Of a DNA stretch of 11,554 nt, positions 238 to 7,649 are shown piece by piece. The position numbers and the translations under genes are program-made. Within the stretch, counting starts at the first letter, position 1. Each line of letters starts with the position of its first letter. The notes beneath the pieces are model-generated. The model did not search any database. It was not told the origin of the DNA and saw only the letters and a program-made list of their open reading frames with translations. The stretch comes from an uncultured Deinococcales bacterium (lineage in GTDB: Bacteria; Deinococcota; Deinococci; Deinococcales; JAAFIG01), in assembly GCA_964244895.1 (NCBI GenBank), contig CAXTKV010000014.1, forward strand, positions 18,865 through 30,418. Reading direction: 5' to 3'.

Positions 238-1077
238 TCAGCCCTTGACCGCACCCGCCGTCAGCGCCCGCGCGAGCTGGCGGTAACTGAACAACCCGAT
301 CACCAACGGCGGCAGGGTGCTCAAGACCATCGCCGCGCTGATCTCGCCCCATTTGACGCCCCAGGAGGTGATGAACAATGTTGCGCCGACCGTGACGGGC
401 GTGGCGTTGCGGGTGGTCAGGATCAGGCCGAACAGAAATTCGTTCCAGACGTAAATGAATGACAGGATCGCGGTCGCGGTCATCGCGGGGCGCGCGAGCG
501 GCACGATCACCAGCCGGAAGACATCCCAGGTTCCGGCTCCGTCCACGCGGGCGGCTTCCTCAACCTCGAGCGGGAAGTCCTGCACGAAACCCACGAACAA
601 CAGGAGGGCCAACGGGATGTTGATGATTGCGCCGATCAACCCCAGGCCCAGGTGCGTGTCCAGCAATCCGACGGCTTGGAACATCAGGTAAAACGGGATG
701 GCGAAAATCACCAGCGGCACGGCTCGCAGATTCGTGATCAGCGGCAACAGCACCCTCGAGCCAATTTTGAAACGCACCATCGCGTACGCGGCGGGCAGCG
801 TCAACGCGATGGCGATGACCGTGCCCAGCGTGGCGATGACCACGCTGTTGAGCAGGTAACGCGGAAAATTCAAGGTCGGGTCTGACAGCACGATTGCGTA
901 ATATTTCAGCGTCGGCGAGAAGACCCACACGGGCGGGTTCTTGTAGATGTCCGCAATCGGTTTGAACGACGTGAAGGCCGTGGCGATCAACGGAAAGTTG
1001 ATCAGCAGCACGACTGCGCCGAATACGATCCAGCGCAGCGTCTCGAACGCGATGCTGACCGGTGATTGGCGCTTCAC
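238..1077 (-). CDS. Carbohydrate ABC transporter permease (MalG-like), transporter 2
   Basis: Several hydrophobic segments and an EAA loop (EVEEAARVDGAGTWDVFRLVIVPL). Start placed at GTG 1077 (MKRQSP...); GTG 1080 or 1098 are alternatives. Confidence 0.92.
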   Translation of the reverse strand: MKRQSPVSIAFETLRWIVFGAVVLLINFPLIATAFTSFKPIADIYKNPPVWVFSPTLKYYAIVLSDPTLNFPRYLLNSVVIATLGTVIAIALTLPAAYAMVRFKIGSRVLLPLITNLRAVPLVIFAIPFYLMFQAVGLLDTHLGLGLIGAIINIPLALLLFVGFVQDFPLEVEEAARVDGAGTWDVFRLVIVPLARPAMTATAILSFIYVWNEFLFGLILTTRNATPVTVGATLFITSWGVKWGEISAAMVLSTLPPLVIGLFSYRQLARALTAGAVKG

Positions 1078-1148
1078 CACGACCCCAGCCCCGAGCACTC
1101 GAGTCTCGAGCGAAACAAAAGTTGATTCTCGTTTATGTGATCACTCAC
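1074..1148 (-). other. Putative 24-aa bridging mini-ORF (MSDHINENQLLFRSRLECSGLGSW)
   Basis: GTG 1148 overlaps the upstream permease stop (GTGAGTGA) and follows GGAG by 5 nt. Its TGA (1076-1074) overlaps GTG 1077 (GTGA). No recognisable homology. Confidence 0.3.
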
Positions 1149-2052
1149 GACCGCTCCCGCGAACCGCGAACCGCATCGAAATCAAAAGCGGCACGAGCGA
1201 GATCAGCAAGAGCAAAATGGAGGCCGATATCGCCGGACCGAGCGCGTCGGATTGAAAAAAGTGCTTGTAGATGTAGATGCTGATGCTGGTCGTGGCCGTG
1301 CCCGGCCCGCCCGCCGTCAGCACGTAGATGTGATCGAAGACGCGGAACGAATCGATGAAACGCACGAAAGCGCTGATCGCGATCGCGGGTGTCAACAGCG
1401 GCAGCACCACGAAGCGCACCGTCTGGGTCGATGTCGCGCCGTCCACGCGGGCCGCCTCGAGCAACTCCGGGGGCACGGTCTGGAGGGCGGTGTACAAAAT
1501 CAGAAACGCGAACGAGGTCCATTGCAAAATCTCGATGGCCACCAGCGTGACCATCGCGGTCGAGGGGCCGAACAGATCGGTCGGCGGCACGCCCAGCAGT
1601 TCCAGGTAGCGCGGCACGACACCCACGAAATCGTTCAGGATCAACCGGTACATCACGCCCAAGAGGGCGGGCGAAATCATCATCGGCAGCAACAGCAGCG
1701 CCAGCAACCACTTGCGCCGCTCCAGGAGCGGCTGGAAGTACAGCGCCATACAAAGACCCAGCACGACTTCCAGCAGCGTGCAACTGAGGGCGAAGCGCAG
1801 CGTGAACCACAGCGCCTCGTAGAACTGCGGGTCGGAAAGCGTCTCGGTGTAATTCCTGATGCCCACGAATTCCGGCGTGCGGAGCGTGCGCAGCGTGAAC
1901 GAGGTCAGGCTCGAGACGAGGTTCGAGACGAGCGGGTAACCCAGCATGATCGCCAGGAACACCAACAACGGTGCGACCAGCGCGAGCGCGGCCCGGTCGA
2001 ACCTGGGTTTTCTCGAGCCCTGAGGCGCGGGCGTGACGAGTCTTTCCTGCAT
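1141..2052 (-). CDS. Carbohydrate ABC transporter permease (MalF-like), transporter 2
   Basis: EAA loop (ELLEAARVDGATSTQTVRFVVLPL), FVGIRNY and GGPGTATT motifs. ATG 2052 is preceded by GAGGA. The ORF-track extension to 2193 runs through repeat DNA. Confidence 0.93.
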   Translation of the reverse strand: MQERLVTPAPQGSRKPRFDRAALALVAPLLVFLAIMLGYPLVSNLVSSLTSFTLRTLRTPEFVGIRNYTETLSDPQFYEALWFTLRFALSCTLLEVVLGLCMALYFQPLLERRKWLLALLLLPMMISPALLGVMYRLILNDFVGVVPRYLELLGVPPTDLFGPSTAMVTLVAIEILQWTSFAFLILYTALQTVPPELLEAARVDGATSTQTVRFVVLPLLTPAIAISAFVRFIDSFRVFDHIYVLTAGGPGTATTSISIYIYKHFFQSDALGPAISASILLLLISLVPLLISMRFAVRGSGRE

Positions 2053-2068
2053 CTGTTCCTCAAATCGT

Positions 2069-2130
2069 CCCACGAGAACACCGTCTGGTACGGTGTCTCG
2101 AGATCGCGCGCTGGACGGTGTTCTCGTGGG
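2069..2130. repeat. Inverted doublet of the intergenic palindromic repeat family
   Basis: Perfect 17-bp inverted repeat CCCACGAGAACACCGTC (2069-2085) / GACGGTGTTCTCGTGGG (2114-2130), with an internal unit GAGAACACCGTCTGGTACGGTGTCTCGAG. Confidence 0.88.
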
Positions 2131-2165
2131 GTGCGCACCGCATCCCGATACTCGAGCCCTCGTGA

Positions 2166-2189
2166 AGGGGCGAGGTGCGTCTCGCCCCT
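2166..2189. terminator. Stem-loop downstream of the binding-protein gene (stabiliser or weak terminator; resembles a degenerate GTAG-type REP)
   Basis: AGGGGCGAG-GTGCGT-CTCGCCCCT, a 9-bp stem about 22 nt after the stop at 2212. No good U-tract follows it in the sense direction. Confidence 0.5.
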
Positions 2190-2211
2190 CCAAAAAGACC
2201 GCGCTCGAGGC

Positions 2212-3552
2212 TTACTTCCCGCTCGAGAGTTTTGTCATCTTTTCCGTCGCGGCCTTGAGCGCGGCGTCCACGGTTTTCTGTCCGGCCCAGACCGCGCTGA
2301 ATTCCTCGGCCAACGCCGTGTAGACGGGCACGGCGTAGGCGGCAGTTCCGCCCGTCACCACGAAGCCGTACTTGCCCAGGTGATCGGCCACGATCGGGAA
2401 CTCGGGGCGTTGGGCGGCCATGCTCTTGAGCACGTTCGCCACAGGCGGCAGGCCGCCAGCGTCGGCGTAGATCTTCATGGCGGCCTCAGAGCCCAGGTAG
2501 GCCAGGAACTTGCCCGCCGCGTCTTTTTTCTCCGAGGCTTTGTTCAAGCCGATGCCGAGGCTGTGAACGTGCGTCTTGTGGCCTTTCGGCCCGGCGGGCA
2601 TCGGCGCGATGGCGACCTTGTCGAACACCAGGGGTGATTTTTCCTTGTCGGAGAGTTCGTTGAAGGCGGCGCTCCACTGCAAGGTCAGCGCGACGTTGCC
2701 GGTGCGGAAGGCTTCGTTGGCCTCGCCGTACTCGTAGGTGGTCGCGCCCGGCGGCACGGCCTTGTTCTTGATGATCGTGTTGTAGACGTTCAGGCCCTGG
2801 CGCGCGGCCTGAGAATCGATGGTCGGCTTGCCGTTCTTATCGAACAGATCGCCGCCGTAGCTGACCAGCGTGCTCTGCCAGATCATGATGTTGAACAGAA
2901 TGTTTTTCATCTGCAAGGCCGCGCCGTAGGTGGTCGGCGATTCTGGGTTGAGGGACTTGGTGAAGAACAAGGAGGTGGCGATGAAGTCGTCCCACGTCCA
3001 GTCCTCGGCCTTCTTCGGTACGAGCGCCTTGCCGAGCGCCTTCTGCGAGATGCTCGCGTAAGCCGCCTTCCATTTGGCGTCCGTCAGGAGCTTCTGAACC
3101 AGGTCCTTGCGGTAGTACGTGAAGTGGTTGCTGACGTCGGTGGGCACGCCGTACTGCTTGCCGGTGAAGTTGAGCGAGCTGACGGCGGACGGCAAGAAGC
3201 CCGCGATGCTGGTCTTGTTCAGGTAAGCGTCGATGGGCTCGAGGTACGGCGCGTACCGCCCGAGCGTGTAGGTCGTGATCAGTCCGAGATCGAATTCTTT
3301 CGAGCCCGCCGCCAGATCGGTCTCCTCTTTCTCGAAGTAACCCTGTCTGGAAAAAAGAATCTGCTTGACGCTGACGCCGTCCTTCGCGCCCACCCCCTTG
3401 TTGTAATCGTCGATGACTTTCTGCATCGCTTCCGATTCCGGGCCGGGCCAGAACAGAAGCCCGACCTCGGTGGGGGATTGCGCTCTCGAGAGCGAGAACG
3501 TCAGCGCGGTGGCGGCGGTCAGTCCAATTCCGACGAGAATCCGCTTCCTCAT
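2212..3552 (-). CDS. Sugar ABC transporter substrate-binding protein, transporter 2
   Basis: ATG 3552 with SD AAGGAG. Signal peptide MRKRILVGIGLTAATALTFSLSRA-Q has no lipobox Cys. Family 1 binding-protein-like motifs YGVPTD, YYRKDL, WTWDDF. Confidence 0.92.
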   Translation of the reverse strand: MRKRILVGIGLTAATALTFSLSRAQSPTEVGLLFWPGPESEAMQKVIDDYNKGVGAKDGVSVKQILFSRQGYFEKEETDLAAGSKEFDLGLITTYTLGRYAPYLEPIDAYLNKTSIAGFLPSAVSSLNFTGKQYGVPTDVSNHFTYYRKDLVQKLLTDAKWKAAYASISQKALGKALVPKKAEDWTWDDFIATSLFFTKSLNPESPTTYGAALQMKNILFNIMIWQSTLVSYGGDLFDKNGKPTIDSQAARQGLNVYNTIIKNKAVPPGATTYEYGEANEAFRTGNVALTLQWSAAFNELSDKEKSPLVFDKVAIAPMPAGPKGHKTHVHSLGIGLNKASEKKDAAGKFLAYLGSEAAMKIYADAGGLPPVANVLKSMAAQRPEFPIVADHLGKYGFVVTGGTAAYAVPVYTALAEEFSAVWAGQKTVDAALKAATEKMTKLSSGK

Positions 3553-3626
3553 GTAGAACTCCTTCCCAGGCCAGCGTCTGCTGGCATCACTGGCTGATAC
3601 GGCGGTACTGCGCCCACCACGTGCAT

Positions 3627-3656
3627 AATTTATCAATTTCGTGCAATTTTTTGCAA
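3627..3656 (-). promoter_or_regulatory. Putative sigma70-type promoter for transporter 2, with an overlapping palindrome
   Basis: AT-rich patch. Minus strand reads TTGCAA (3656-3651), 18 nt, then TAAATT (3632-3627) preceded by TGn. The palindrome TGCAA-TTTT-TTGCA lies at 3642-3655. Confidence 0.5.
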
Positions 3657-3703
3657 CGCACCTTTTTGCTCAATGGTTCGGTCGAAAGCCGCCCGCTCGT
3701 CCT

Positions 3704-4552
3704 TCAAAAACTTTTATCCACCACGGCTTCGGCGGTGCGGCGCACAGCCTCGCGTCCACCCTCGAGCCGCGCCAGCAAAGCCGTAAAGATCACTTCCAGA
3801 ACCAACATCTGACCGACCTTGCTGCTGACCGCACCGCCTTCGGTCGGACTTTCCGGGCTGGAGGTGTACAGCACGGCGTCGGCAGCCGTGATCGGGCTGC
3901 GCGAGCGGTGCGTGATGGCGATGGTGAACGCGCCAGCGCGCCTGGCCAACTCGAGCGCGTGAACGGTGTCCTTGGTCGAACCGGATCTGGAAATACCGAT
4001 GGCGACGGTATTTTTGCTCAGGTTGGCGGCGCTCATGGCGGCCATGTGCGGGTCGGTCTGCGCCAGCGCGTTCAGACCCAAGCGCACGAATTTGTACGCG
4101 AAATCCTGGGCAGTCACGCCGGAGGCGGCCACGCCGTAGACCTCGATCCGCCCGGCGGTTTCCAGGGCGTCCACCACGCGATCCACGGTTTCGGGCTCGA
4201 GAATCTGCGCGGTTTCTTCCAGCGCGCGCTCGGCGCTGTGAACCGCGTGCGCGATGATGGCTGGCGTGCCCTGAAGCGCACTGGACGGGCTGGAGACGTT
4301 CGACGAGGCCAGGTCAGCCGTCAAGGAGAGCTTGAAATCCTGGAAGCCCTGGTAGCCCAGATCGCGGCACAATCGGATCACGCTGGCCTCGCCGGAACCG
4401 GAGAGTGAAGCCAGCTCCGTGACGGACAGGTAGATCACGTCCTCGGGTTTTTCCAACGCGTACTCCGCGACGCGTTGCAGGGCGGGCGTCAACGATGGCA
4501 AACTCGAGCGCAAGCGCGCGACCGTACCCGCCGTCGGCGCGAACCTGGTCAC
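3704..4552 (-). CDS. RpiR/MurR family transcriptional regulator (HTH + SIS domain)
   Basis: N-terminal HTH (LSVTELASLSGSGEASVIRLCRDLGYQGFQDFK) and SIS motifs (YGVAASG, IGISRSGST). Start placed at GTG 4552; the ORF-track start at 4768 overlaps nanE. Confidence 0.92.
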   Translation of the reverse strand: MTRFAPTAGTVARLRSSLPSLTPALQRVAEYALEKPEDVIYLSVTELASLSGSGEASVIRLCRDLGYQGFQDFKLSLTADLASSNVSSPSSALQGTPAIIAHAVHSAERALEETAQILEPETVDRVVDALETAGRIEVYGVAASGVTAQDFAYKFVRLGLNALAQTDPHMAAMSAANLSKNTVAIGISRSGSTKDTVHALELARRAGAFTIAITHRSRSPITAADAVLYTSSPESPTEGGAVSSKVGQMLVLEVIFTALLARLEGGREAVRRTAEAVVDKSF

Positions 4553-4653
4553 GGGCGCGACCCGAAGGTGAATCGAGAAACACCGTCCGGGACGCGCAAT
4601 TTTATTTGCGTCCTGGACGGTGTTCTCTTGAACTGGAATCGTTCGGGACTCAT
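4549..4653 (-). other. Putative 34-aa bridging mini-ORF (MSPERFQFKRTPSRTQIKLRVPDGVSRFTFGSRP)
   Basis: ATG 4653 overlaps the nanE stop (TGATG). Its TGA (4551-4549) overlaps the regulator GTG 4552 (GTGA). It reads through the repeat doublet. Confidence 0.35.
4575..4627. repeat. Inverted doublet of the intergenic palindromic repeat family
   Basis: GAGAAACACCGTCCGGGACGC (4575-4595) / GCGTCCTGGACGGTGTTCTC (4608-4627) around an AT-rich loop. Confidence 0.88.
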
Positions 4654-5354
4654 CAGCGACCTGCCGAGCGCACCGCGTTGGCGTACCAGCCGACCACCAC
4701 GTCGGGCCGCGTGATGACCGTGCCGACCACCACGGCGTGCGCACCCAATTCCAGCGCTCGTTTCGCATCGGTGGGGCTCGAGATGCGCCCCTCTGCGATC
4801 ACGGGTTTGCCCAGCCCAACGGCGGCTTCGATGAAATCCCAGTCCGCACCCATCACGCCCGTCAGCGCATCCGGCGCGGGTCTGGGCGAATCCGGCGTGT
4901 AGCCGCTCATGGTCGTGCCGACGAAATCCGCGCCCACCGCAATCGCTTCCCTGGCGTCCTGAAGCGTCGCGCAGTCCGCCATGGCGAGCGCGCCCGCCGC
5001 GTGAACGGCCTCTGTCAACTCGAGCACGCTGTGCGGCCTCTCGCGCCGGGTGGCGTCGAAGGCCACGATGCTGGAACCCGCCGCGACCAGCGCCCTGACC
5101 TCGTCCGGCGTGGGCGTGATGTAGACATCGAAGCCGTCCATGACGCGTTTGGTCAGACCGATGATCGGCAACCGCACGGCCTCTCGCACCGCCCGCACGT
5201 CGTCCACCGATTGGATCCGCACGGCTCGAGCCCCACCGATTTCCGCAGCTCTGGCGAAGGCCGCGATCACGCGCGAATCGCGGAACGGGCTGCCCGGATC
5301 GGCCTGACACGAGACGATCAGCGCACCGCGCAAGGAGTCCAGAAGCTCACTCAC
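4653..5354 (-). CDS. nanE: N-acetylmannosamine-6-phosphate 2-epimerase
   Basis: NanE motifs LIVSCQA, PIIGLTK, YITPT, GTTMSGYT, IAEGRI and VVGTVITRP. GTG 5354 has SD GGAGG. Confidence 0.93.
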   Translation of the reverse strand: MSELLDSLRGALIVSCQADPGSPFRDSRVIAAFARAAEIGGARAVRIQSVDDVRAVREAVRLPIIGLTKRVMDGFDVYITPTPDEVRALVAAGSSIVAFDATRRERPHSVLELTEAVHAAGALAMADCATLQDAREAIAVGADFVGTTMSGYTPDSPRPAPDALTGVMGADWDFIEAAVGLGKPVIAEGRISSPTDAKRALELGAHAVVVGTVITRPDVVVGWYANAVRSAGR

Positions 5355-5448
5355 AGCCATCCTCCATGGGTTCGAGAAAACCATCGCACCAGAATTTCTC
5401 GAGTCTCGAGCGCACCGTCCTGAACGGCTTTCTTTTGACCACGCTCAC
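5347..5448 (-). other. Putative 33-aa bridging mini-ORF (MSVVKRKPFRTVRSRLEKFWCDGFLEPMEDGCE)
   Basis: GTG 5448 overlaps the permease stop (GTGA). Its TGA (5349-5347) overlaps the nanE start region (GTGAGTGA). Confidence 0.3.
5398..5432. repeat. Degenerate repeat unit preceded by tandem CTCGAG
   Basis: CTCGAGTCTCGAGCGCACCGTCCTGAACGGCTTTC; the core CACCGTCC-T-GAACGG matches the family. Confidence 0.6.
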
Positions 5449-6332
5449 GATTTCACCGCGCCATCCAGCCCGCGCATGAACAAACGTTGCGCCAGCAAAA
5501 ATACGATCAGCACGGGAACCATCAAAATCATCGCGCCCGCCGCCACGTTGAACGGCGAGTAATTGAACTGACCCTGAAGTTTCAGCATCGCCACCGAAAG
5601 CGGATGCAGATCTTCCGCGCCGATCAGCGCGATGCTCGGCCAGAAGTACGCGTTCCACGTGCCGACCAGCGTGAAGATACCCAGCGCCGTCAGCGACGGC
5701 ACGGACAGCGGAATCATCAACCGAAACAGAATCCCGAATTCCGTGGCGCCATCGATCCGCGCGGCCTCGAGCAACGAATCGGGAACCTGCATGTACGCCT
5801 GGCGCATCACGAAAATTCCGAAAGCGGTCGCAATCACCGGGATCACCACGCCCGCGTAGGTGTTCAGCAAACCCAATCTGTTCAGGGTCAGCACCTTGAC
5901 GATGAAGCTCGTCTCGTCGGGCAGCACCAGCGTCGCCAGGATGGCCGCAAAAATGATCGCCTGGCCCGGAAAGCGCAACTTGGCCAACGGGTAGGCCGCC
6001 AGCGCCGAGACGATCAGCGTACCCACGACCGTCAGACCGGAAATGATGATCGAGTTCAGCAAGTATTTTTGAAGGTTGAAGACCCGGAAGACCTCGATGA
6101 AATTGTCGATCGTGACGCGCGACGGGAACAGGCTTTTCGGGAAATCGTAAATGCCCGCGCCGCCCGCAACCGTTTTATCGGTGATCGAAATGGCCAGCGT
6201 CCACAAAAACGGGAAGAGCGCAAAGACCGCGATCAGCACCAGCACCAGGTAGGTCAACGCGTTCGAGAAGACCTTGCGCCACGGGATAACGCGGGTGTTC
6301 GAGCGCTCAAAGGTGGGAGTGGAGAGGCTCAC
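5445..6332 (-). CDS. Carbohydrate ABC transporter permease (MalG-like), transporter 1
   Basis: EAA loop (SLLEAARIDGATEFGILFRLMIPL), plus LAAYPLAKLRFPG and WNAYFWP motifs. GTG 6332 has GAGG 7 nt upstream. Confidence 0.93.
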   Translation of the reverse strand: MSLSTPTFERSNTRVIPWRKVFSNALTYLVLVLIAVFALFPFLWTLAISITDKTVAGGAGIYDFPKSLFPSRVTIDNFIEVFRVFNLQKYLLNSIIISGLTVVGTLIVSALAAYPLAKLRFPGQAIIFAAILATLVLPDETSFIVKVLTLNRLGLLNTYAGVVIPVIATAFGIFVMRQAYMQVPDSLLEAARIDGATEFGILFRLMIPLSVPSLTALGIFTLVGTWNAYFWPSIALIGAEDLHPLSVAMLKLQGQFNYSPFNVAAGAMILMVPVLIVFLLAQRLFMRGLDGAVKS

Positions 6333-6373
6333 GAAGTTTCCTCGAGAAAGGGTGCGATTTGCGGGTTCGCGCG

Positions 6374-6437
6374 AGGGCAACCATGAAGGTTGCCCCTACA
6401 GGACAGGATGTTGTGGGGGTAGGCCTTGTCTCTACCT
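6374..6437. repeat. GTAG-type REP doublet
   Basis: The reverse complement of 6374-6399 is GTAGGGGCAACCTTCATGGTTGCCCT (GTAG tetranucleotide plus hairpin). An oppositely oriented degenerate copy GTGGGGGTAGGCCTTGTCTCTACCT lies at 6413-6437. Confidence 0.7.
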
Positions 6438-6496
6438 TTCCCTCGGAACGTTTCTGAGCGCTCTCGCAGGAGGTCTGATCTTTTCGCGCGCGAGGG

Positions 6497-6540
6497 CAGC
6501 GTCTGGCACGCACGCTCGGAATCGCGTCCCGGACGGTATT
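6497..6540. repeat. Degenerate inverted doublet of the intergenic palindromic repeat family
   Basis: CAGCGTCTGGCACGC (6497-6511) faces GCGTCCCGGACGGTATT (6524-6540), the same layout as 4575-4627. Confidence 0.65.
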
Positions 6541-6555
6541 TATTGGGCTCGAGCT

Positions 6556-7452
6556 TCACGGCTTGACCTCGTTCTCTCGGGTCAGGCGGAAGTTCAGGTA
6601 GCTCAGCACGAAACCGAACGCGGCGATCACCAGTCCGGCGGCGCTGGCCTTGCCGAAATCGAAATCCAGCCCGATGCTCTTGCGGTACACGTACAGCAAG
6701 GCCGTGAAGGTGCTGTTCAACGGGCCGCCCTCGCCCCTGGTGAAGACCAGGATTTCTTCCAGCACGCGGATCGCGGCCAGCGTGGACAGGAGTGAACACA
6801 GCAGAATCGTGGGTCGCATCAACGGCACGATGATCCGCCAGAAGGTCTGCCAGGCGTTCGCGCCGTCCAGCCTCGCGGCCTCCTCGAGTTCGGACGGGAT
6901 CGCCTGAAGGCCGCCCAGGTACAGCACCATGTAATAGCCGAAGCCGCGCCAGAACGTCACCAGCATGATCGCCCAGAGCGCCGTGGAGGGGTTGTTCAAC
7001 CAGCCATCCTTGTTGACGACGCCCAGAAAGGACAATCCCCAGTTCAGCACGCCCTCGCGGGCGTAGACCCATTCGAACATCACGGCGGCCAGCGTGATCG
7101 ACGTGATCACGGGCACGTAATACGCAGCACGGAAGAACGTGATGCCGACCAGTCGGCGGTTGACCAGCACGGCCACCGCCAGCGCCGCGACCTGAAGGAT
7201 CGGAACGACGATCAGGTACTTGGCGGAATTCCACAAACCCGTCACGAACAAGGGATCGTTGAAGACCGTGCGGAAATTTTCCAGACCGATCCATTTGGGC
7301 GCTTCACCCGCCCCGAAGGTCGCACCCGTGTACTCCGTGAAGCCCAGGTACGCGCTGTACAGCACCGGATAAAACGTGAAGACCGCCATCAGTAAGAGCG
7401 CGGGCAGCAACAGCCCGTAAGCGATCAAGGTGATGGTCGGTGTTTGCCTCAT
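6556..7452 (-). CDS. Carbohydrate ABC transporter permease (MalF-like), transporter 1
   Basis: EAA loop (ELEEAARLDGANAWQTFWRIIVPL), WIGLENF and GGPLNST motifs. ATG 7452 has SD GAGGT. Confidence 0.93.
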   Translation of the reverse strand: MRQTPTITLIAYGLLLPALLLMAVFTFYPVLYSAYLGFTEYTGATFGAGEAPKWIGLENFRTVFNDPLFVTGLWNSAKYLIVVPILQVAALAVAVLVNRRLVGITFFRAAYYVPVITSITLAAVMFEWVYAREGVLNWGLSFLGVVNKDGWLNNPSTALWAIMLVTFWRGFGYYMVLYLGGLQAIPSELEEAARLDGANAWQTFWRIIVPLMRPTILLCSLLSTLAAIRVLEEILVFTRGEGGPLNSTFTALLYVYRKSIGLDFDFGKASAAGLVIAAFGFVLSYLNFRLTRENEVKP

Positions 7453-7510
7453 CGTGAACCTCAAGATCAAAAGTGGGCGCGTGCTCGAGATTCACAGCCA
7501 AATGATCATG

Positions 7511-7540
7511 CTCGAGAACACCGTCTGGAACGTGCTTTTT
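7511..7540. repeat. Single unit of the intergenic palindromic repeat family
   Basis: CTCGAGAACACCGTCTGGAACGTGCTTTTT; its reverse complement closely matches 127-157. Confidence 0.8.
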
Positions 7541-7612
7541 TATTCTTTGATTTGTGCGTGCTGGATGGTCTTCGTGAACCCTCGACTCGAGCATCTCGAG
7601 TCAGGCCGGAAG

Positions 7613-7644
7613 AGGTGGAGGCGCACACGCGTGCGCCTCCACCT
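7613..7644 (-). terminator. Strong stem-loop immediately after the binding-protein stop (mRNA stabiliser or partial terminator)
   Basis: Perfect 14-bp stem AGGTGGAGGCGCAC-ACGC-GTGCGCCTCCACCT, 5 nt downstream of the stop. Only a weak pyrimidine tail follows. Confidence 0.65.
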
Positions 7645-7649
7645 GGAAA

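Follow-up and report, generated by a model that had tools for sequence, protein, structure and literature searches.

Short open reading frames (ORFs) that overlap the operon genes on either side of them occur in MIRUs (mycobacterial interspersed repetitive units), which were reportedly described by Supply et al. in 1997. Here we analyze ORFs of similar geometry, termed bridges, in a stretch of 11,554 nucleotides (nt; the window) from an uncultured Deinococcales bacterium, in which four junctions between minus-strand genes, among them those of sugar ABC transporter permeases, are each spanned by a small ORF that overlaps both neighbours. In the accessible parts of the sources cited here, to which all our statements on published systems are limited, MIRUs appear as units of 40-100 bp with an ORF of their own and tetranucleotide direct repeats, present in 40-50 copies per genome; the ORF overlaps neighbouring operon genes and is coupled to them at -4 nt, and the insertion is believed to change expression little (PMC12548453; PMC3184786). 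Coupling through overlaps of -4, -1 and -8 nt involves a Shine-Dalgarno (SD) site inside the upstream gene and is enriched among genes for subunits of heteromeric complexes (PMC10666635; PMC12548453). It works at spacings of about -4 to +3 nt and is nearly gone by 20-30 nt (PMC10666635; PMC12548453), so that an insertion of 60-350 nt would uncouple a gene pair unless it could be read in phase. Mycobacteria also carry small ORFs coupled through RTGA (R being A or G), a geometry over-represented at 23/220 versus 32/1000 (Shell et al. 2015; PMC4633059), and at integron attC/attI1 termination-reinitiation on a non-functional short ORF takes ribosomes past a hairpin and on to the following gene (PMC8876359). 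Repetitive extragenic palindromic (REP) sequences and bacterial interspersed mosaic elements (BIMEs) are species-specific intergenic hairpin repeats present in the hundreds (PMC3184786), and the accessible part of the BRE paper mentions overlaps of a few bases and no coupling (PMC3110155).

In the genome from which the window derives, repeat DNA separates many gene pairs that overlap in relatives, and the gap stays, much more often than expected by chance, one stop-free frame touching both genes. A bridge likely lets ribosomes pass from one gene to the next, and the pattern suggests that the hand-over itself is under selection.

Excess, phase and stop avoidance of bridge ORFs

The source assembly (G000; 5.1 Mb, 62.7% GC, 328 contigs, 91% complete; the window lies on contig C14) was annotated with a gene caller of our own, which uses hexamers and SD sites, is blind to overlaps and called 4464 genes. 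These form 2766 same-strand junctions between genes of at least 200 nt, 1829 of which have spacers of 30-400 nt; the same-strand set is unusually inflated, with only 659/2766 junctions below 30 nt. A spacer was scored as bridged if an ATG or GTG overlapped the upstream stop by 4, 1 or 8 nt and the first stop in that frame overlapped the downstream start likewise. We identified 136 bridged spacers among the 1829, compared with 30 when one or two bases were inserted mid-spacer (frameshift null), 42 +/- 6 when two junctions were joined (chimera null) and 57 +/- 5 when spacer interiors were shuffled (shuffle null), a frequency well above every null, as an earlier note made from the letters of the window (the sequence-only reading) had anticipated. 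Repeat-containing spacers contributed 97 bridges in 970 (12.5 expected), spacers with CTCGAG only 21 in 521 (7.8 expected) and spacers with neither 18 in 338 (9.5 expected). Bridged spacers have no fixed unit and measure between 31 and 355 nt. Overlaps of 4 nt form a strong peak at both ends (out, 101 versus 24; in, 86 versus 18), those of 1 and 8 nt form lesser ones, and the spacing between stop and start fits the range of about -8 to +3 nt for termination-reinitiation coupling. Relays of two steps numbered 11 versus 3.

Enrichment is seen for phase as well as for stop avoidance. When repeat spacers bounded by RTGA on either side were sorted by length modulo 3, the three classes held 29/80/20, of which 6/68/0 were open in the bridge frame. 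Since the third class is partly depleted by the caller, which absorbs in-frame extensions, we compared the first two, which over all spacers stood at 123 versus 55 (p = 4e-7); the phase test also holds when restricted to long genes (92 versus 16.5). With regard to stops, 95 of 123 in-phase junctions were open in their native form versus 53 of 123 with the interior reverse-complemented, a control that keeps length and repeat content (p = 7e-8). The period of tandem arrays was divisible by 3 in 8/8 arrays of bridged spacers versus 51/102 arrays elsewhere, a test that left out 13 bridged and 54 other arrays whose period is a multiple of 7; a period of 7 was seen in 10/21 arrays in bridged G000 spacers. 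Heptamer arrays are common in spacers of G000, its relative G028 and L204/L216/L218, and seem stop-free in all frames.

Chance, aided by start-calling artefacts in GC-rich, TGA-rich DNA, might be thought sufficient for this excess: RTGA is common on both sides of genes, being present at 15-27% of stops and at 45-50% of starts, chance accounts for roughly 1/4 to 2/5 of the 136 bridges, and absorption of in-frame extensions by the caller depletes one phase class. The frameshift, chimera and reverse-complement controls preserve ends, starts and composition, however, the phase test holds both against the unaffected class and for long genes, and the window junctions are anchored by orthologues. We therefore consider this explanation extremely improbable; it is refuted at genome scale, although single bridges that lack orthologue support may be due to chance.

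The repeat itself supplies a different candidate cause. The 12-mer arm of the palindromic repeat occurs in 679 copies in G000 and in at most five in each of 40 relatives, and many palindromic extragenic copies together with species restriction are REP-like traits. Its arms occupy all three bridge frames (23/16/20 and 29/10/21), which indicates that, in contrast to MIRUs, the repeat does not bring the ORF with it; the repeat is cargo in the bridges and not the cause of the frame. Bridges might nevertheless be a mutational by-product, free of selection, left by a MIRU-like element that has its own ORF and inserts at RTGA with target duplication, or by tandem duplication of junctions. Such an origin would be consistent with an RTGA that is effectively doubled, given that the upstream gene end and the downstream start both retain their ancestral positions, with the slight likeness of the 10 nt left of the two RTGA sites (similarity 3.60 versus 3.19 permuted, p = 0.001), with one short bridge that duplicates a junction exactly (the majority of short bridges read RTGA, new SD, RTGA), and with a repeat core that is poor in stops. 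It does not predict the absence of a fixed unit, arms in three frames, ATGA or GTGA at one bridge end being uncorrelated with that at the other (p = 0.52), the count of shared words of at least 8 nt (10 versus 6.2 +/- 2.1), the rough halving of open frames in a reverse-complement control with the same repeat content, or the retention of phase over eight lengths in a lineage that lacks the repeat (below); moreover, Y1 transposase (PF01797) had no match in G000, a 91% complete assembly of 328 contigs. A by-product origin is in our estimation quite improbable and largely refuted for frame and stop avoidance, but the doubled RTGA may first have arisen in this way; RTGA is present at both ends and both are ancestral, the relatives lying too far away for a comparison of empty with filled alleles. 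Two narrower candidates were rejected. A built-in element ORF with strict target duplication was unsupported in view of the three-frame arms, the uncorrelated ends and the count of shared words, and in-frame N- or C-terminal extension by the repeat is rare as an outcome, with repeat words within 150 nt of 10/354 overlapping junctions.

Orthologous junctions and the fate of the bridge peptide

In order to compare junctions with those of relatives, 20-kb pieces were read from G006 (1.24 Mb), G028 (0.84 Mb) and G003 (0.28 Mb), and gene pairs were matched through their best BLAST hits. The genes of the orthologous pair were no more than 2 nt apart for 19/31 bridged and 27/122 unbridged junctions (p = 5e-5), and for 52/74 G000 junctions that still overlap; within the DNA covered, an orthologous pair was found for only 31 of the 136 bridges. 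Taken from the other side, 18 of 37 junctions that stand at -4 nt in a relative and at 30-400 nt in G000 are bridged, about half of such split junctions, and bridges occupy a few percent of spacers in relatives. Those relatives, which lack the repeat, also show an excess (G006, 15/415 versus 5.8; G028, 11/294 versus 2.0; G003, 3/95 versus 0.7; pooled p = 4e-5, with kinship ignored). Two G000 junctions (C137:3164 and C31:4874) are bridged in a relative as well (G006 and G003, respectively), with unrelated spacer sequences.

Within the window, J1 joins sugar ABC permeases 1a (6556..7452) and 1b (5445..6332), J2 joins permease 1b to nanE (4653..5354; N-acetylmannosamine-6-phosphate epimerase, PF04131), J3 joins nanE to rpiR (3704..4552; an RpiR-family regulator with HTH_6 and SIS domains, PF01418 and PF01380) and J4 joins sugar ABC permeases 2a (1141..2052) and 2b (238..1077), all on the minus strand and all permeases matching PF00528. 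At J1, bridge 1 (76 amino acids, aa; 6329..6559) overlaps the permease 1a stop and the permease 1b start by 4 nt each and is preceded by an SD-like site, whose duplex with the anti-SD is predicted at -6.6 kcal/mol. The two permeases overlap directly by 4 nt in 13/13 relatives (the best-scoring 13 of 33 other matches, one with an internal stop); both G000 ends are matched by G006, and permease 1b begins with VSL as does its G006 orthologue, which starts in direct overlap. At J2, spanned by bridge 2 (33 aa; 5347..5448; 4 nt in, 8 nt out), a permease gene and nanE share a 4-nt overlap in L209 and are separated by 10 nt in L203. J4 carries bridge 4 (24 aa; 1074..1148; 8 nt in), and in 3/3 relatives there is a direct 8-nt overlap where that bridge starts. 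The direct overlaps that the sequence-only reading had proposed to look for in relatives were thus seen.

Bridge 3 (34 aa; 4549..4653; 1 nt in, 4 nt out), at J3, is the clearest case. No nanE synteny was seen in the nearest relatives, and orthologous junctions were taken from permease and rpiR searches instead. The 40 rpiR loci compared comprised the window itself, 18 without a window gene upstream, 1 with a permease upstream at -4 and 20 with nanE upstream, and of these 20 relatives 12 are bridged, 6 overlap directly and 2 are short and ambiguous, with none both long and unbridged. Eleven of the bridges enter by 4 nt and leave by 8 nt, across spacers of 33, 48, 69, 75, 93, 96, 132 or 165 nt, all multiples of 3, as had been foreseen for length changes at orthologous junctions. 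As these genomes are kin, the relevant count is the eight lengths and not the 11 loci; phase was kept over all eight in a lineage without the G000 repeat, even among three genomes whose rpiR is 95% identical and whose spacers measure 93, 132 and 165 nt. The bridge frame is open in 11/11 versus 10/22 for the other frames. The remaining bridge, in L206 (G082:C231), is the 43-aa C-terminus of permease 2b, a remnant coupled at both ends that was left when a whole ABC transporter was deleted in frame. The interpretation first proposed, that repeats inserted between formerly overlapping genes persist where ribosomes can cross them and so preserve coupling, is supported overall, with the qualification that the repeat is dispensable, bridges occurring in relatives without it and one being a deletion relic.

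Could bridges be ordinary small genes that escaped annotation and encode functional peptides? Their start codons and SD sites resemble those of genuine coupled genes, a few of the 136 look like true proteins, such as the 69-aa ORF C39:20171, and one of two close pairs of nanE-rpiR bridges has a ratio resembling that of nonsynonymous to synonymous change (dN/dS) of 0.40. The other pair, however, gave 0.81, against 0.06 and 0.07 for rpiR, and the median coding score per codon of bridge peptides is -0.51 versus +0.49 for genes. The peptides translate a species-specific repeat in three frames; at nanE-rpiR alone they vary from 14 to 58 aa and are mostly unalignable, and they are often wholly absent from orthologous junctions. 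Bridges thus show neither the sequence conservation nor the coding-like composition of small-protein genes, and we hold this explanation to be very improbable. The suggestion that bridges might seed de novo peptides found no support in this analysis. C39:20171 in G000 and a 97-aa bridge at L141:9108 do resemble real unannotated small proteins.

An SD site is retained at either end of a bridge. An SD-like site lies inside the upstream coding region, as in termination-reinitiation coupling, and the predicted SD duplex before the bridge start has a median of -5.3, compared with -3.1 for unbridged RTGA, -2.8 for convergent RTGA and -6.2 for true overlaps. The downstream start region was predicted to be less accessible in bridged than in length-matched unbridged spacers (0.375 versus 0.457), in line with the expectation that hairpins would bear on it, and the last repeat arm lies nearer to that start (45 versus 67.5 nt, length-matched); both fit hairpin melting, which, like reinitiation at bridges, we infer. 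The choice of partners is also uneven. Spaced permease-permease junctions are bridged in 9/21 cases (10 with J4) and 14 further ones overlap directly, whereas only 2/24 binding protein-permease junctions are bridged (p = 0.013 against the 9/21) and none overlaps directly, extending to the genome the earlier observation that junctions after binding-protein genes lack bridges.

The best of the rival explanations invokes protection or avoidance of damage: the old start fires, and ribosomes either cover the spacer against Rho and RNases or stop before an out-of-frame run over the downstream start, with the downstream gene using its own SD. The SD of bridged downstream genes (median -6.1) is indeed as strong as in overlapped genes, Rho is present in 40/40 relatives, and half of all starts read RTG-A, so that an in-phase open frame often ends on a start automatically. 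Plain coverage nonetheless predicts open frames in any phase, whereas they are enriched only in the phase that ends at the start (68/80 versus 6/29); stops concentrate at overlaps of 4, 1 and 8 nt and not upstream, and bridges favour 1:1 partners. Phase specificity counts against plain coverage but not against run-over avoidance, and we judge this explanation as a whole to be unlikely. A loss of Rho from G000 was also considered and rejected: TIGR00767 finds none in G000 and finds it in 40/40 relatives, but the gene that follows rho in three relatives corresponds to a gene of G000 that is truncated where a contig ends (C149:0), and an assembly gap therefore probably explains the missing Rho.

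Features of the window

Read along the minus strand, the window encodes binding protein 1, permeases 1a and 1b, nanE, the RpiR regulator, binding protein 2 and permeases 2a and 2b; the nearest named relative of its nanE is in a Deinococcales metagenome-assembled genome (L021, 71% identity). Bridging of 4/7 junctions is high even for G000 (p = 4e-4, computed as 4/6 at the genome rate, and about twice that for 7). All four ORFs that the sequence-only reading had described were recovered at their positions, lengths and overlaps, with GTGA at both ends of 6559-6329, GTGA in and GTGAGTGA out at 5448-5347, TGATG in and GTGA out at 4653-4549, and GTGAGTGA in and GTGA out at 1148-1074. Its downstream starts were borne out at 6332, 5354 and 4552, each picked independently by the overlap-blind caller; for permease 2b the caller chose 1098 instead, and three orthologues, by their N-termini, favour 1077 or 1080 over that call, which makes the outgoing overlap at J4 4 nt (start 1077) or 7 nt (start 1080). 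None of the four bridge ORFs had a match in Pfam, and Rfam gave 0 matches at gathering score within the window.

Repeats, CTCGAG or both occupy all four bridged spacers, as reported before. J1 holds two CTCGAG and, inside bridge 1, a degenerate copy of the genome's palindromic REP-like repeat (family D1; 6492..6539, no strand assigned), as well as a second type of hairpin on the minus strand, identified by folding, that begins GTAGGGGC (6374..6399; 161 copies of the 8-mer in the genome) and that we take to resemble GTAG-type REPs. J2 contains half a repeat and two CTCGAG in tandem, J4 tandem CTCGAG only, and J3 a full copy of the palindromic repeat, CTCGAG being absent; this copy folds into a long hairpin (4575..4627, no strand assigned; region z = -3.2) that bridge 3 spans. 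The peptide motif RSRLE, the one likeness claimed among the bridge peptides, is confined to J2 and J4. Two repeat-containing minus-strand spacers without a bridge, from binding protein 1 to permease 1a (7453..7649) and from binding protein 2 to permease 2a (2053..2211), serve as internal controls, and together with the rpiR-binding protein spacer they agree with the earlier account in lacking bridges. That account had also called the spacer 3553-3703 promoter-bearing, but a sigma-70 scan gave no site there. The 159 nt of spacer 2053-2211 are free of stops in a frame common to both genes, so read-through of a single TAA would fuse binding protein 2 to permease 2a.

Other features of sequence composition were observed along the way. 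CTCGAG reaches 4.3 per kb in G000, 4.5 in G006 and 6.1 in G003, but 0.06 in G028, and in G000 the following gene often has CTCGAG plus a G as its SD. TAGGGG is the hexamer with the highest over-representation in G000, and CGGCCG (0.009 of expected) and CCCGGG (0.027) are strongly avoided genome-wide, which suggests restriction-modification pressure.

A probable ribosome relay and its known counterparts

We think it likely that bridges are a selected relay by termination-reinitiation, with a disposable peptide, at junctions that ancestrally overlapped. A ribosome ending the upstream gene would reinitiate at the old overlapped start, read across the inserted repeat DNA while unwinding its hairpins, terminate at the stop that overlaps the downstream start and reinitiate there. 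Insertions, expansions and deletions that keep phase and remain stop-free would survive, and others would be purged or require an independent start; the origins of bridges are mixed, including repeat insertion, local expansion, occasional junction duplication and in-frame deletion.

Several points weigh against this relay. About 30-57 of the 136 bridges are expected by chance, and starts come from our own caller, with at least one window start miscalled and probably several others. Of the junctions that overlapped ancestrally and are spaced today, about half (19/37) have no bridge, although some of the 19 resemble start miscalls. Because bridged downstream genes own an SD, they may initiate independently; the accessibility gap is modest and predicted, and the unbridged spacers in that comparison include true operon boundaries. 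The dN/dS-like ratios of the bridges rest on about 11 substitutions per pair, and the relatives are not independent and were covered only in part. Pooled non-Deinococcota loci (23) gave 0/48 bridged junctions versus 1.0 expected, too few for power.

The relay bears on why genes overlap. According to a 2025 review, -4 overlaps are abundant mainly because they evolve easily (PMC12548453), which leaves undecided the share of coupling that is under selection. Bridges separate coupling from ease, as they save no DNA, carry the cost of a junk peptide and have to stay in phase and free of stops for as much as 350 nt, and nonetheless about half of the junctions with a -4 overlap in a relative carry one. 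Should ribosomes be relayed as proposed, bridges would be a sequence-only marker of gene pairs that need coupling and would explain how massive repeat expansion is tolerated inside operons; about 100 unannotated translated ORFs would be predicted in G000, whose intergenic DNA would then be no neutral baseline. The nanE-rpiR series in near-complete relatives provides ready natural alleles. More tentatively, and with rather less confidence than we place in the relay itself, a hidden class of sequence-free linker ORFs may exist in Deinococcota operons, and perhaps in those of many GC-rich prokaryotes, with selection turning any DNA that enters a split coupled junction into a phased relay; such relays would be at once a natural experiment on adaptive coupling and a pool of translated junk for new peptides.

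Our literature search, with most subscription journals outside its coverage, found no report of a genome-wide excess of doubly overlapping bridge ORFs, but the relay principle has precedents in MIRUs, coupled mycobacterial small ORFs and integron attC ORFs. Like the MIRU ORF, a bridge overlaps adjacent genes in the same direction. Bridges are instead mosaics of 31-355 nt that hold the repeat in any frame, have uncorrelated RTGA ends and arise without the repeat too; they form no discrete unit of 40-100 bp with its own ORF, and as they have neither a fixed unit nor a built-in frame they are not MIRUs. The G000 repeat resembles REPs and BIMEs in its abundance and species specificity; it is cargo in the bridges, and Y1 transposase was not found in this assembly, which is 91% complete. 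The mycobacterial RTGA-coupled ORFs share with bridges a geometry that is sometimes conserved while the peptide is not (PMC4633059), but they are leaderless first ORFs coupled at one end, whereas bridges are internal ORFs with coupling on both sides that stand in place of an ancestral direct overlap. While attC ORFs are limited to integron recombination sites, bridges occur genome-wide in ordinary operons. Compared with direct coupling, finally, bridges display an identical overlap geometry, but would apply it two times in succession, with a disposable ORF in between, across distances over which genes would otherwise be uncoupled.

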